DNA of 64,000 bases from a phage, in sequence record PX880102.1; one strand, written 5' to 3'. The notes beneath the pieces are model-generated. The model saw only the letters and a program-made list of their open reading frames with translations, was not told the DNA's origin and ran no database searches. Below, piece by piece: positions 2,992 through 18,644 of this stretch. A program made the translations under genes and the position numbers. Positions within the stretch are counted from its first letter, which is position 1. Each line of letters opens with the position of its first letter.

Positions 2992-3168
2992 TTATGCTTT
3001 CTGCTTACCAAAACGAGAAGCATCATCTCGAAGAACCGCACGTGCTCGGCGCATGATCTTCTCAACAGTTTGATTGATACGAGAGTTCGACCCACGCTTG
3101 TAGCCAGCGCGTTTAGAATCACCAACTTTCTTTTCAACTGCTTTCTTTGCTTTAGCTTGTTTTGCCAT
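2992..3168 (-). CDS. small highly basic protein (58 aa, Lys/Arg-rich)
   Basis: ORF track 2992..3210 trimmed to ATG at 3166-3168. Confidence 0.45.
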   Translation of the reverse strand: MAKQAKAKKAVEKKVGDSKRAGYKRGSNSRINQTVEKIMRRARAVLRDDASRFGKQKA

Positions 3169-3456
3169 TATAAATTCTCTTTTAAATGAAAATGCAGGAC
3201 TTATTGGCATTGCCTGCGCAAGCCCTCAAGGGGAACATAGGTTTTTGAATATTTAACGACCAGGATAACCATAAACCCGTCATCATACACCAAGACTTAC
3301 ACAGATAACACTTTTCTGACGTATGATAGTAACATTCAAGAGGTACACCATAAAACTGCCGGGGTCTTAAAACTATAATGATTCGCAAATCATTAATCAG
3401 ACAGTTCGATGGCTCCTCGATTTTAGCTCACACTAAGGCAGTGAATCTCCAATAAA

Positions 3457-12642: not shown

Positions 12643-12693
12643 AAATTTTCCACTTAGTTAATAGATAGTGACTCGTCCATGAGTCAAATTATA

Positions 12694-14958
12694 TCATAAT
12701 TTACAGGATGAACAATCTTCAGCTTTTGGAGTTTCTATTTCATAATCATCAGTACCAGAACCATCACGGGTATTATGATAATAGAAATTTTTAATGCCAT
12801 AATACCATCCGTATAGCATGTCATCAATCATTATTGACATTGGAACCTTTCCTTTTGGAAAAATCTGCGGGTCATAGTATGTATTTGCTGAAGCTGATTG
12901 ACATACCCATTTCAGCATAATAGCTACCTGCGTAAGATAAGGTTTATTACCTTTCTTAGCTAATTTCCACGTATAATCATATAGGTCTATGTTATGCTCA
13001 ATATTGGGCACGACTTGATTAAAGGAACCCTCTTTTGATTCTTTAACAGAGACTGGTCCACGTGGAGGCTCGATACCGTTTGTACTGTTAGAAACTTGGG
13101 AAGATGACTCACATGGCATAAGTGCTGATAATGTGCTATTACGGATGCCAAAGAGCTTAAGGTCTTCCCGCAGCGCCGACCAGTCACAAACGTATTTTGG
13201 AGCTGCGATTTGGTCAATCTTTTTATTGTACCAGTCGATAGGTAATTCGCCTCGAGACCAACGAGTGTCTGAATAATATTCGCAAGGTCCTTTTTCTTTG
13301 GCGAGCTTAATGGATGCTTTAATGAGTCCATACTGTAATCTCTCAAATAGTTCATGTGTTAAATCGTTAGCATCTTCATAAGAAGCAAAGTTACTTGCCA
13401 GCCAAGCTGCATAGTTAGTAACACCTACGCCAAGGTTACGACGCTTTTTAGCTTTTTCTGCTTCAGGAACTGGATATCCTTGGTAATCCAAAAGATTATC
13501 AAGAGCACGAACTTGAACTTCTGCCAATTCATTAATTTTATCTTGGTCTTGCCAGTCAAAATTATCTAATACGAATGCAGAGAGAGTACACAATCCAATT
13601 TCAGCATCAGGACTATTCACATCATTTGTTGGAATAGCAATTTCACAGCACAAGTTACTCTGACGAATAGGTGCCTTTTCACGAATAAACGGAGTGTAGT
13701 TATTCGTATTATCAATGAACTGCACATAAATCCTTGCTGTTCCTGAACGTTCAGTCATGAGCAATTCAAATAGTTCACGAGCTTTAATACGCTTTTTACG
13801 AATATTAGGGTCTTTTTCTGCTGCTTCGTATAATTCACGGAAACGGTCTTGGTCTTTAAAATAAGAATAATAAAGCTCTCCACCCATTTCATGTGGACTG
13901 AACAAAGTAATGTAATCATTCTTTCCAAAACGTTCCATCATCAAATCATTCAGCTGAACACCATAATCCATATGACGAATGCGGTTTTCTTCTACGCCTT
14001 TGTTATTTTTCAAAACGAGAAGATTTTCAACTTCCAAATGCCAAATAGGATAATAAGCAGTAGCAGCGCCGCCACGAATTCCACCCTGTGAGCATGATTT
14101 AACTGCAGTCTGAAAATGTTTCCAAAAAGGAATAACACCGGTATGGCGTACTTCACCCATGCCAATCTTAGAACCTTCAGCACGAATCATACCAACGTTA
14201 ATACCAATTCCAGCGCGTTTAGAGATATATTCAACAATTGAAGCAGAAGCCTTATTGATAGACTTCAGTGAATCGCCTGCCTCAATAACAACACATGAAC
14301 TAAACTGTCGAGTCGGAGTACGACAACCAGCCATAATAGGAGTTGGCAATGAAATCTGTCGAGTAGATACTGCTTCATAAAAACGAATAACATGTTTTAA
14401 TCTATCAACAGGTTCATCTTGATGCAATGCCATTCCAATAGTCATAAATGCAAACTGTGGAGTTTCATAAATTTGACCAGTGGTTTTATCTTTAACTAGA
14501 TATTTTTCTTTTAATTGCATCGCCCCGGAATAAGTAAATTCCATATCCCGCTCGTGCTTAATTTTTGATTCTAAAAATGTAATTTCTTCTGCTGAATATT
14601 TTGACAGCAGTTCAGGGTCATATTTACCTTCATTTACACAGTAAGAAATATGGTCAATAAATGAACGTGGTTCATATTGTCCGTAAACATGCTTACGAAG
14701 AGCAAACATTAAACAGCGAGCGGCTACGTATTGATAATCAGGCTCTTCAACTGAAATAGAATTCGCAGCAGCCTTAATTACAATGGTTTGAATGTCATCA
14801 GTGGTCATTCCATCACGGAGATAAGATTTAATATTTTCATATAATTCATAAGGATCTACAGATGTTCCTTCAGCTGCCCAAGATAAAACTTTAATAATTT
14901 TTTGTGGGTCAAAGCTCTGAGAAACACCACTACTTTTGATAACATTAATTAATTGCAT
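12694..14958 (-). CDS. nrdA: ribonucleotide reductase large subunit (754 aa)
   Basis: 754 aa; active-site NLCCEI; C-terminal CSSCKL cysteine pair. Confidence 0.95.
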   Translation of the reverse strand: MQLINVIKSSGVSQSFDPQKIIKVLSWAAEGTSVDPYELYENIKSYLRDGMTTDDIQTIVIKAAANSISVEEPDYQYVAARCLMFALRKHVYGQYEPRSFIDHISYCVNEGKYDPELLSKYSAEEITFLESKIKHERDMEFTYSGAMQLKEKYLVKDKTTGQIYETPQFAFMTIGMALHQDEPVDRLKHVIRFYEAVSTRQISLPTPIMAGCRTPTRQFSSCVVIEAGDSLKSINKASASIVEYISKRAGIGINVGMIRAEGSKIGMGEVRHTGVIPFWKHFQTAVKSCSQGGIRGGAATAYYPIWHLEVENLLVLKNNKGVEENRIRHMDYGVQLNDLMMERFGKNDYITLFSPHEMGGELYYSYFKDQDRFRELYEAAEKDPNIRKKRIKARELFELLMTERSGTARIYVQFIDNTNNYTPFIREKAPIRQSNLCCEIAIPTNDVNSPDAEIGLCTLSAFVLDNFDWQDQDKINELAEVQVRALDNLLDYQGYPVPEAEKAKKRRNLGVGVTNYAAWLASNFASYEDANDLTHELFERLQYGLIKASIKLAKEKGPCEYYSDTRWSRGELPIDWYNKKIDQIAAPKYVCDWSALREDLKLFGIRNSTLSALMPCESSSQVSNSTNGIEPPRGPVSVKESKEGSFNQVVPNIEHNIDLYDYTWKLAKKGNKPYLTQVAIMLKWVCQSASANTYYDPQIFPKGKVPMSIMIDDMLYGWYYGIKNFYYHNTRDGSGTDDYEIETPKAEDCSSCKL

Positions 14959-15275
14959 AAGTCCTCAACTTGAAAATCGTCTTTAAACAATCGGTTAACT
15001 ATATGAGCTATTATATCACCATGACACGGCTTTGGTTTACATGTGCATCCTAGCCTCATTCCACGTAAAGGCTCTAAATGTGCTTTAGTTATTTCTCCGG
15101 ATTTAATTCGACGTATAAAATCTTTTTTGAATAATTCAATGGCAGCCTCCCGGCTGCCAGCATCTTTACCGACGTAATTTCCCCAAAATGTACCACGGTG
15201 AATATTAACATCAAAGTCGGATTTATATTTATTCACTACTCGGCATATACGGCCTGCGCGGTTGTAAGTGTTCAT
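14949..15275 (-). CDS. hypothetical protein with [12 protein letters not shown] motif (108 aa)
   Basis: ORF track; synteny with T4 nrdA.x. Confidence 0.5.
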
Positions 15276-15504
15276 ATTGTTCTTCCGTTAAAACAGTAAT
15301 ATCGTAGTAACAGTCAGAAGAAGTTTTAACTGTGGAAATTTTATTATCAAAATACTCACGAGTCATTTTATGAGTATAATATTTTTTGCCATAAATGATA
15401 ATAGGCTGATTTGGTCCTGGAACTTCTAACTCGCTTGGGTTAGGAAGTGTAAAAAGAACGGCACCAAAAGTATCTTTAAATCGTAAAATCATATATCCTC
15501 TCAA
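15229..15504 (-). CDS. hypothetical protein (91 aa)
   Basis: ORF track. Confidence 0.5.
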
Positions 15505-15515
15505 TTAAATTAAAA

Positions 15516-16376
15516 TTATACCGCCATCTTTCCTTTAATTGACGGATGAGATACATAGTTGTTAAGAACAAAATTATGAGGCTTTGCAAATTGACTCAAC
15601 CAAAATACCTGCGATTCTGTGTCCCATTCATCAAATTCATCTGGAAATTTTAATTGTAATTCGCATAAATCCATAGGTTCACGACGTAAAATTTCTTTAC
15701 ATTGTTCTACGTGATTCATATAGATATGAGTATTACCACCAGAAAATATCAAATCTCCAGGAATAAGATTACACATTTTAGCTACAATATGAACTAACGT
15801 AGCATATGATGCAATATTAAATGGAAGACCGAGGAAAACATCTACCGAACGTTGATACCACTGCAAATCTAAATAGCCATTACGCACATTAAACTGATAG
15901 AACATATGGCAAGGCGGTAATGCCATATATTTAAGTTCAGCTGGATTCCATGCAGAAACAATTTGACGCCTATCATTTGGCAATTTTTTAATACGATCAA
16001 CAACTTCTATAATTTGGTCTACACCGCCAAAATCACGCCATTGTTTTCCATAAATTGGACCAAGTTCACCGCTATGGTATCCTAAATCTTTTGCTTGATT
16101 TTCGTAATTTTCATCCCAAACTGTTTTGCCTTGGATTAACGAATCATGTTGAATTAATCGTAAATCATTGACATTTGTGCTTCCTGATAAAAACCATATT
16201 AGCTCAGCAATGCATGCATTCCAGGCGAGCTTTTTAGTTGTTACTGCAGGAAAGCCTTTAGTTAAATCCCAACGCAATTTAGTACCGAACAGAGCAATTG
16301 TTCCTGTGCCCGTTCGGTCATCGGTTTCATAGCCATTTTCAAAAATGTCTTTAATTAAATCTTGGTATTGTTTCAT
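15516..16376 (-). CDS. td: thymidylate synthase (286 aa), uninterrupted
   Basis: ThyA active site PPCHMFYQF; full-length continuous ORF. Confidence 0.95.
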   Translation of the reverse strand: MKQYQDLIKDIFENGYETDDRTGTGTIALFGTKLRWDLTKGFPAVTTKKLAWNACIAELIWFLSGSTNVNDLRLIQHDSLIQGKTVWDENYENQAKDLGYHSGELGPIYGKQWRDFGGVDQIIEVVDRIKKLPNDRRQIVSAWNPAELKYMALPPCHMFYQFNVRNGYLDLQWYQRSVDVFLGLPFNIASYATLVHIVAKMCNLIPGDLIFSGGNTHIYMNHVEQCKEILRREPMDLCELQLKFPDEFDEWDTESQVFWLSQFAKPHNFVLNNYVSHPSIKGKMAV

Positions 16377-16421
16377 TTAGTACCTTATATAAATTATAAT
16401 ACATTTTATGAAGCTAAATAA

Positions 16422-16769
16422 TCAATACGGTTTAGCATCAAATTTTCTCTCAATTTCAGGCGTGAAATATAATTCTTTACCACGTTTGGAAAAGCGACCA
16501 ATAATATGATAATTATTCTCATCAAACGTGATATTACCAATATCCATAGCTTTCAACCAAATATCAATATTTCTATCCAGTTTTATGTCAAAATTCCAAT
16601 ACGGAGAACTATTACCGAAAATACTGCAAGCGGATTCAGTGAAACAACTGCTATAAATCTTGTCTTTAGGAACTACTAATTGATAGACACCTTTAATAAA
16701 CTGAGGACCCTGCCACTTTGGCTGTTTCTCGTCTTTTTCTAATAGAATAGGGTAATAATTAAAATTCAT
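16422..16769 (-). CDS. hypothetical protein (115 aa) lying between frd and td
   Basis: ORF track; own short intergenic spacers on both sides. Confidence 0.55.
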   Translation of the reverse strand: MNFNYYPILLEKDEKQPKWQGPQFIKGVYQLVVPKDKIYSSCFTESACSIFGNSSPYWNFDIKLDRNIDIWLKAMDIGNITFDENNYHIIGRFSKRGKELYFTPEIERKFDAKPY

Positions 16770-16788
16770 ATTTCCGCCACGTGTTATT

Positions 16789-17611
<823 letters not shown>

Positions 17612-17627
<16 letters not shown>

Positions 17628-17971
17628 TGAAAAGGGTCATGAGCATATCCGCTAGCGTCAATCATTTTAACTAAAGTTACCATTCCTTTGTTAACTGCTT
17701 GTGCGATTTCATCAAAAACTTCGTCACTATCGTCGTAAAGGTCATTAAAAAATTCTAATACGTTCTTCTGAACTTTTAATTTACGGCCGACAATTTCGCC
17801 TACAGTAAATTCGTTTCCGCCAAATCCAGCGTAAAATGTAATTACACCCATTAACTGGCTTTCACGGGAATCTATGTCGTGTGATAAATTAATAAAAGCC
17901 GTCCCAGGCGCGGTTTTAAGTTGGCAACGAATTTTTACTTGGGTAATTCCAGTTATATGAATGTTAGACAT
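17612..17971 (-). CDS. hypothetical protein (119 aa)
   Basis: ORF track. Confidence 0.5.
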
Positions 17972-17981
17972 AATATTTTTC

Positions 17982-18224
17982 TCAAACAGACTTTTTCACA
18001 ATTTTCCAATCAGCTTTAAACTGATCAACATCAGAATGATAAATCCAGAATCCTGCGCTTTCTCCATCCTCATAAAGAGGGCATCTATCACATTCATCTT
18101 CCCATCCCATATCACGCAAAAGATGTTCAGCTTTTTCAACAAGTTCAGAATCTTTACCGATGATATTAAAATACCATTTACCTCTAACTTCTGAATCTTT
18201 AATACTCTGACGTTGTAATCTCAT
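17982..18224 (-). CDS. hypothetical protein (80 aa)
   Basis: ORF track; early promoter and leader upstream. Confidence 0.5.
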   Translation of the reverse strand: MRLQRQSIKDSEVRGKWYFNIIGKDSELVEKAEHLLRDMGWEDECDRCPLYEDGESAGFWIYHSDVDQFKADWKIVKKSV

Positions 18225-18247
18225 TTTATTCTCCTTAGTTGATAGGG

Positions 18248-18281
18248 TAATAGTATCACACTACTACCCTTCTGTAAACTA
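18248..18281 (-). promoter_or_regulatory. T4-type early promoter
   Basis: GTTTAC (18274-18279 rc), 18 nt, TACTAT. Confidence 0.5.
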
Positions 18282-18644
18282 CTTTTTGAAAGTTTTTCGC
18301 AAAAGTTCAATGATTTCGTCTACATTGTTTTCGTCAACAATGCAATGAATTTTTGTTACGCCAGAAACCTTGTCTTTGACTTCATCTTCTTCAGAAGTCG
18401 GTTCTTTATACTCACGAAAACAATGAAATTCGTCTTCGCAAACGTTAAAGTAAAAATGCTTTCCATTTGCGCATTCAATATGTTTTATTACTCTAAATCC
18501 ATCAGCAAAGAAAGCTTCTTTAACTTCAAACCATCCGCCATTTTCTTGAATAATTTTAACTATTGATGAATTAGAACGTGGGCGATAATTAATAAATGTA
18601 TCAATAAGTCTTGGAACAAGTTCATACTTTTTGCCAATATACAT
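18279..18644 (-). CDS. hypothetical protein (121 aa)
   Basis: ORF track. Confidence 0.5.
   Translation of the reverse strand: MYIGKKYELVPRLIDTFINYRPRSNSSIVKIIQENGGWFEVKEAFFADGFRVIKHIECANGKHFYFNVCEDEFHCFREYKEPTSEEDEVKDKVSGVTKIHCIVDENNVDEIIELLRKTFKK

Follow-up and report, generated by a model that had tools for sequence, protein, structure and literature searches.

td.1, a constrained small gene between frd and td in most Tequatrovirus phages, and its absence from T4

In phage T4 (NC_000866), the genes for dihydrofolate reductase, frd (145109–145690), and thymidylate synthase, td (end at 145112), share a 4-nt ATGA overlap of stop and start codon, so that the junction is empty; the original prediction stated this arrangement correctly. 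Small reading frames among the conserved genes of nucleotide metabolism are known from T4 itself. Its free-standing homing genes (mobE between nrdA and nrdB, and seg) are short cassettes at such positions; they are present in some T-even phages and absent from others, and they show signs of having been transferred between phages. td.1, the gene treated here, is like them in these respects. The T4 frd–nrd cluster also contains the small ORFs frd.1 (DUF5417), nrdA.1 (DUF4326), nrdA.2 (DUF5496), and a DUF7247 ORF, which are conserved and interleaved with genes of dNTP synthesis. As with td.1, the occurrence of some of them varies between phages, but their sequences are unrelated to td.1, which has no Pfam family. 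The PeSL cassettes of the hyperplastic regions of T4-type phages, which Arbiol and coworkers are said to have described in 2010, reportedly consist of an ORF flanked by an early promoter and a stem-loop.

The closest described relative is the T6 gene itself, as the T6 record AY262134 (protein ABI48938) already names an ORF td.1 at this position. It shares 97% nucleotide identity with the gene analyzed here, differs at 1 of 115 residues, and has the same frd–td position and the same spacers; there is no difference of substance, and the two are the same gene. In the records of RB14 and RB32, it is called RB32ORF229c. The ORF is hence already known as td.1; its annotation goes back nearly two decades, and hundreds of sequenced phages have it. 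Nothing relevant emerged from literature searches for td.1, RB32ORF229c, and PHROG 1928, and a paper on mobE that uses the T6 record does not discuss td.1.

The gene td.1 and its surroundings

The analyzed window comprises 64,000 nucleotides (PX880102.1) and is a segment of a Tequatrovirus (T4-like) genome, in which the gene block of interest lies on the minus strand. This block includes nrdA (12694–14958), nrdA.1 (14949–15275), nrdA.2 (15229–15504), an uninterrupted td of 286 aa (15516–16376, start codon 16374–16376), and frd of 193 aa (16789–17370, stop codon 16789–16791). The 202-aa frd ORF of the mechanical list begins at an upstream in-frame ATG, and the 193-aa form is colinear with T4 Frd, from which it differs at 6 of 193 residues (95% nucleotide identity). 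The gap of 412 nt between td and frd (16377–16788) holds, as predicted, an ORF of 348 nt (TGA stop included) that encodes 115 aa and has its own spacers. According to ORF listing and sequence, td.1 extends from an ATG start to this stop over 16422–16769. It is separated from frd by 19 nt (16770–16788, AATAACACGTGGCGGAAAT, as read from the sequence) and from td by 45 nt (16377–16421, based on sequence and alignments). In a local blastn comparison with T4, positions 16380–16780 of the window had no counterpart.

td.1 is a genuine protein-coding gene under strong purifying selection. The 17 longest ORFs in the window served to train a codon model, with which the in-frame score of td.1 was +0.25 bits per codon, close to td (+0.30) and frd (+0.29), and the five other frames of the region, including the antisense ones, scored between −0.47 and −1.49. 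Pairwise dN/dS values among seven td.1 alleles (window, T2, T6, ime09, ZN18, and two Mosigvirus copies) were 0.01–0.07, and the comparison of the window with phage Shf125875 revealed 26 synonymous and 10 non-synonymous changes. The td genes of T2, ime09, and ZN18 were left out of such comparisons, as possible introns or divergent 3' ends made ungapped comparison unreliable. Homologues of td.1 at 24–66% identity exist. These distant homologues, the codon usage, the dN/dS values, and the conserved motifs and confidently predicted fold described below together establish td.1 as a real gene. The original prediction was to be given up if coding-type codon usage and conservation were lacking, and both are present. 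That the ORF is open merely by chance in AT-rich intergenic sequence and gives no product, as the lack of a known domain and the unannotated ORF in the T2 record LC348380 could suggest, is as good as refuted by the same comparative data.

With respect to expression, the frd–td.1 spacer contains a weak Shine-Dalgarno-like GGCGGA 3 nt ahead of the ATG, and the td.1–td spacer contains the td Shine-Dalgarno sequence AAGG, a TATAAT hexamer (16393–16398), the heptamer AGCTTCA (16409–16415), and one 9/12 sigma-70-like match found in a promoter scan. Across the region, sigma-70-like matches were not more frequent than in shuffled sequences, as judged with a simple consensus that does not model T4 middle and late promoters. 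No terminator-like hairpin was found in the region, and the RNA structure of the td.1–td spacer was not significant (z −1.2). With promoter matches at chance level, no such hairpin, and this z value, td.1 lacks the flanks of a PeSL cassette. As neither a terminator nor a convincing promoter was detected in the spacers, td.1 is presumably co-transcribed with frd and td. By eye, AGCTTCA together with TAnnnT may resemble a MotA-dependent middle promoter, and any promoter role of the td.1–td spacer is putative.

The window also differs from T4 at neighboring sites. td has neither a group I intron nor I-TevI here; the T4 segment 143547–144563 (1017 bp) is missing, with the junction at 15827/15828. 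The presence of td.1 does not track this intron: both occur in T6, the intron alone in T4, and td.1 without a td intron in T2 and the window, and Escherichia phage vB_EcoM-fFiEco06 combines the intron with the 68-aa allele described below. The nrdB–nrdA gap (12643–12697) measures about 55 bp versus 700 bp in T4 (139720–140419), where nrdB.1 and the homing endonuclease gene mobE are found; mobE is absent between nrdB and nrdA in the window. A second block that is absent from T4 is located between frd and frd.1 (17387–17913), with an 85-aa ORF that has no Pfam match (17373–17627, minus strand) and a 119-aa DUF7247 ORF (17615–17971, minus strand). A similar additional ORF upstream of frd was seen in T2 and ime09.

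Distribution of td.1 and alleles of the frd–td junction

The td.1 protein matched PHROG 1928 with residues 4–111 (E 3.1e-36), a family labeled 'unknown function'. The identical 115-aa protein was found on 80 public contigs, and every named member of the 154-member cluster at 90% is a 'hypothetical protein'. Elsewhere in GenBank, the labels of td.1 conflict: the gene appears as 'putative homing endonuclease' (BASEL and some Klebsiella phages), as 'putative dihydrofolate reductase', and as 'putative glucose-1-phosphate adenylyltransferase', and it is unannotated in LC348380. Our tests support none of these functional labels, which should not be propagated.

By blastn, td.1 was detected at 89% or higher nucleotide identity in 363 phage records, with T2, T6, RB3, RB10, RB14, RB32, RB51, and RB68 among the carriers. 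With tblastn, another 219 records with less than 60% identity were obtained; these are from T4-like phages that infect Klebsiella, Enterobacter, Edwardsiella, Erwinia, Citrobacter, Serratia, Salmonella, and Proteus. An exhaustive profile search of 1.84 billion representative proteins retrieved just 44 clusters, all phage-restricted and nearly all consisting of stand-alone proteins of 95–148 aa. No second td.1-like gene was found elsewhere in the window.

The T4 junction sequence matched 515 records, which fall into three types. Records of the td.1 type gave a split match spanning about 717 bp, those of a second type, which carries a 68-aa ORF, a split match spanning about 507 bp, and those of the T4 type a contiguous match of 301 bp. 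Within Tequatrovirus, td.1 accounts for about 70% (about 360 of about 515) and the 68-aa ORF for about 27% (about 137). The empty junction makes up a few per cent, corresponding by subtraction to about 15–25 records, several of which are T4 itself. These figures were estimated from searches that overlap, and laboratory T4 enters them with duplicate records. T4 therefore has the rare allele, and the occurrence of td.1 in the phage studied here is ordinary, as most T4-like phages carry the gene and T4 is the exception. The view of an 'extra', unusual ORF was accordingly not supported, since its presence is the majority state in the genus. Of the proposed finding that most T4-like phages including T4 have the ORF, the part on most phages held and the part on T4 did not.

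The 68-aa ORF belongs to PHROG 9550 ('unknown function') and is present at 95% or higher nucleotide identity in 137 records. It is located at 454–660 of our sequence L012 (vB_EcoM-fFiEco06) and at 3173–3379, 3148–3354, and 2806–3018 of L003, L007, and L010, respectively, and its stop and start codons overlap with td and frd. With 60–79% identity across genera, it is much more conserved than td.1. In Tequatrovirus, it replaces td.1, whereas it sits together with td.1 homologues in other genera. The frd stop in the window (16784–16792) is still in an ATGA context and is followed by AAATAA, which gives a vestigial two-codon frame, ATG AAA TAA, similar to ATG AAA CAA at the start of td. This ATG is also the start codon of the 68-aa allele (ATGAGCAATAAA), so that all three alleles share the junction.

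History of the junction

An alignment of the frd–td junction across T-even genomes, which had been suggested with the original prediction, was carried out with the window, T6, and T4, as well as with RB69 and two Mosigvirus genomes. It shows the T4 overlap and an indel bounded by the 12-bp direct repeat TAAATGAAAyAA. The first copy (TAAATGAAATAA, 16784–16795, minus strand) spans the frd stop codon with its retained ATGA, and the second (TAAATGAAACAA, 16368–16379, minus strand) spans the td start codon. The copies are 416 bp apart, T4 corresponds to the window minus one copy and everything in between, and a blastn map accordingly places T4 145101–145115 on the window twice. The T4 overlap would most simply be explained by loss through recombination or slippage between the 12-bp repeats, as such a deletion would recreate the ATGA overlap exactly. 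Insertion through the same microhomology would fit the short repeat equally.

The same frd–td gap is occupied by td.1 family members in metagenomic contigs and in at least ten genera of T4-like phages. Nine records of phages outside Tequatrovirus have the td.1 homologue directly after frd, mostly with overlapping stop and start codons; positions directly after frd or before td were found in Kanagawavirus, Jiaodavirus, Roskildevirus, Moonvirus, Winklervirus, Gelderlandvirus, Muldoonvirus, and others. The codon overlaps suggest that td.1 is often translationally coupled to frd and td in these phages. In other genera, a second ORF of about 115–124 aa often comes after td.1, and the 68-aa ORF sometimes lies between it and td. 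According to hhalign (probability 99.2%, E 1e-19), the second ORF is a td.1 paralogue, and both groups match PHROG 1928, as do distant family members. The closest relatives outside the genus are on two metagenomic contigs with a td.1 of 63–66% identity. One of them (L019) has the full array of frd, td.1, paralogue, a 69-aa ORF, and td, and the other (L020) has frd, td.1, and the paralogue and then ends. Three remoter members (to E 1e-4) lie between a DHFR gene and td, or upstream of td at a contig end. The frd/td location thus holds in the window, T6, nine other genera, two Mosigvirus genomes, and all five metagenomic contigs sampled, and td.1 appears from these genomes to be a small, phage-restricted family locked to one locus.

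td.1 has also moved between phages, as two Mosigvirus genomes show. In phages SF and Shf125875, td.1 shows 90% nucleotide identity to the window (dS 0.53–0.60), and their td genes are only 75–76% identical (dS 1.78–1.9); the frd of SF has 65% identity. The frd stop overlaps the td.1 start (ATGA) in SF, where the 19-nt spacer is gone, and about 30 nt of the td.1–td spacer are missing in the Mosigvirus copies. A cassette of Tequatrovirus type thus sits in a Mosigvirus genome background, so that these two phages acquired td.1 by recombination, a route by which the cassette moves between phages. Shf125875 (L013, 1236–1853) has a Tequatrovirus-like frd with 87% nucleotide identity to the window, versus 65% for SF, and its frame of 618 nt continues beyond the usual frd stop into td.1. 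Both features point to a mosaic recombinant junction in this phage.

We regard td.1 as a probable old resident of the frd–td gap, whose fullest known array is frd, td.1, paralogue, 68-aa ORF, and td. As the nearest relatives outside the genus hold td.1, the paralogue, and the 68-aa ORF together, the T4 state is most likely a loss, and the identity gradient (97, 66, 47, 43, and about 30%) together with the synteny argues for td.1 being ancestral here. A complication for a simple loss is the empty ATGA overlap that is found not only in T4 but also in RB69 of the genus Mosigvirus, which means that two losses or a transfer of the empty allele would be needed. This shared overlap could instead be ancestral for the Tequatrovirus/Mosigvirus clade, with td.1 inserted later from a remoter T4-like phage. 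Such an order of events would agree with the clearly acquired td.1 copies of Mosigvirus and with the 7- to 12-bp repeat (AAATGAA), which suits microhomology-mediated insertion no less than deletion. However, empty alleles constitute only a few per cent of the records, the closest outgroup contigs (63–66%) and all other sampled genera have the family at this site, and the identity gradient resembles vertical divergence. A late insertion is therefore quite unlikely in our view, whereas the identity of td.1 and its evolutionary account, with ancestral residence and loss in T4, have a high probability on the basis of these comparisons.

The td.1 product and its possible roles

Scans of the td.1 protein and 12 family members against Pfam, NCBIfam, and PADLOC gave no match, which bears out the initial impression of a protein without recognizable motif. 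AlphaFold2 predicted the structure with a pLDDT of 81 and a pTM of 0.78 from 10 sequences, and with a pLDDT of 89.8 and a pTM of 0.82 from 46 sequences; the pLDDT values of the five models in the latter run were all 88.6–89.8. The predicted fold comprises strands at residues 6–12, 27–34, 38–40, 48–50, and 62–64, a helix at 68–76, and strands at 80–82, 86–96, and 99–104, so that td.1 is confidently predicted to be a small, neutral-to-basic protein of mixed beta/alpha fold. Foldseek searches with the model of pLDDT 81 found no significant match to solved structures, and the sub-threshold matches were mostly OB folds. The order of elements in the model (three strands, a helix, and two long strands) is like that of OB-fold proteins such as SSB, RPA, PriB, and CspA, and the neutral-to-basic charge likewise resembles OB-fold nucleic-acid-binding proteins. 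We treat this model-based resemblance as a lead only. The pI was 6.6–9.6 in 18 of 19 family members (5.2 in one paralogue), so that the family does not consist of acidic DNA mimics. The motifs Q(K/P)KW, HG(I/V)Y, and (I/L)GRFxKxGxxxxFxP are shared across 12 to 46 homologues, with invariant W19, G91, K95, and G97 and nearly invariant G27, Y29, F93, and F102; this conservation pattern is mostly structural and not catalytic.

Some apparent similarities were rejected. A marginal match to the ABC ATPase TagH in a PDB profile search (E 0.012) aligns with the signature and Walker B segment of an alpha/beta ATPase, which is incompatible with the predicted fold, and is attributed to chance, as are matches to dynein in the PDB profile search. 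The segment 'GVYQL...IYS' looks like GIY-(10)-YIG by eye, but its second Tyr is not conserved, hhalign with I-TevI gave a probability of 0.7%, and no GIY-YIG structure was matched.

The polymorphism of the cassette has to be considered with respect to two further explanations. A new kind of homing endonuclease, encoded by a free-standing selfish element that cuts the empty frd/td junction and copies itself in, would agree with the label in GenBank records of BASEL and Klebsiella phages, with the precise placement between two conserved genes, with the sporadic occurrence in Tequatrovirus and Mosigvirus, and with a cassette that is more alike between genera than its flanks; moreover, T4 has such elements nearby (mobE, I-TevI, and I-TevIII). 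However, neither a homing endonuclease motif or domain (GIY-YIG, HNH, LAGLIDADG, or PD-(D/E)XK) nor a nuclease fold was found in td.1, and similarity to I-TevI is lacking. No group I intron or intron-ORF remnant was detected at td.1 in an Rfam scan of 15000–18500, in which the sole match with E values allowed up to 1 was a spurious lncRNA (19.5 bits). This is in line with the original statement that the ORF does not look like a remnant of an intron or homing endonuclease. Unlike the T4 homing genes, td.1 is also much smaller, is fixed at one locus across many genera, and combines a long vertical residence and tandem paralogues with strong purifying selection, so that we consider a homing function very unlikely. 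An accessory gene for host interaction or counter-defence, with alleles shaped by host selection and a merely historical position between frd and td, would equally account for the greater similarity of the cassette than of its flanks between genera, and in addition for presence/absence and allele replacement within one genus. A precedent is provided by the polymorphic ip loci of T-even phages, which encode specific anti-restriction proteins (PMC12373910). td.1 is furthermore small, dispensable, without enzymatic motif, and phage-restricted (44 clusters among 1.84 billion proteins). Counter-defence genes are more often found in hypervariable islands and evolve fast, and td.1 differs from this habit, as it is under very strong purifying selection and its locus is fixed across many genera with differing hosts. 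PADLOC, whose library covers defence and not anti-defence proteins, gave no match, and literature searches found no experimental link. On balance, a role in host interaction or counter-defence, the main alternative to the function favored below, is conceivable and rather doubtful.

The presence of T4, RB69, and phages with the 68-aa allele, all of which do without td.1, indicates that the gene is dispensable, and this would apply under laboratory conditions. A function in the thymidylate/folate module is suggested by the invariant position of td.1, the start/stop overlaps that often link it to frd and td, and the strong constraint on its sequence; td.1 may be a non-enzymatic binding or adaptor protein for Frd, Td, or the dNTP-synthesis complex. 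Gene order is weak evidence for such a link, since T4-like genomes are broadly colinear. We propose this small, dispensable, non-enzymatic binding protein that serves the Frd/Td module tentatively, as a possibility that falls clearly short of an even chance. That PHROG 1928 is a structurally new family at the DHFR–thymidylate synthase junction that physically couples or regulates the phage thymidylate cycle is unlikely at present. The combined explanation of td.1 as an old gap resident that was lost in T4, moves between phages, and acts as a binding protein of the Frd/Td module has, as a whole, slightly better than even prospects of being correct.

As a discovery, the ORF matters little. The textbook ATGA overlap between frd and td in T4 represents a rare state, which is probably derived and would be explained by a 12-bp repeat. 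The frd–td gap is a polymorphic site with three alleles, and its fullest form contains three genes. Being strongly constrained, locus-locked, and confidently predicted in its fold, with no known relatives, td.1 is a reasonable target for functional work. If PHROG 1928 indeed couples or regulates the thymidylate cycle, it could, for example, join Frd and Td as an adaptor within the dNTP-synthesis complex or inhibit the corresponding host proteins, and td.1, the 68-aa ORF, and the empty junction would represent alternative solutions tuned to host metabolism.
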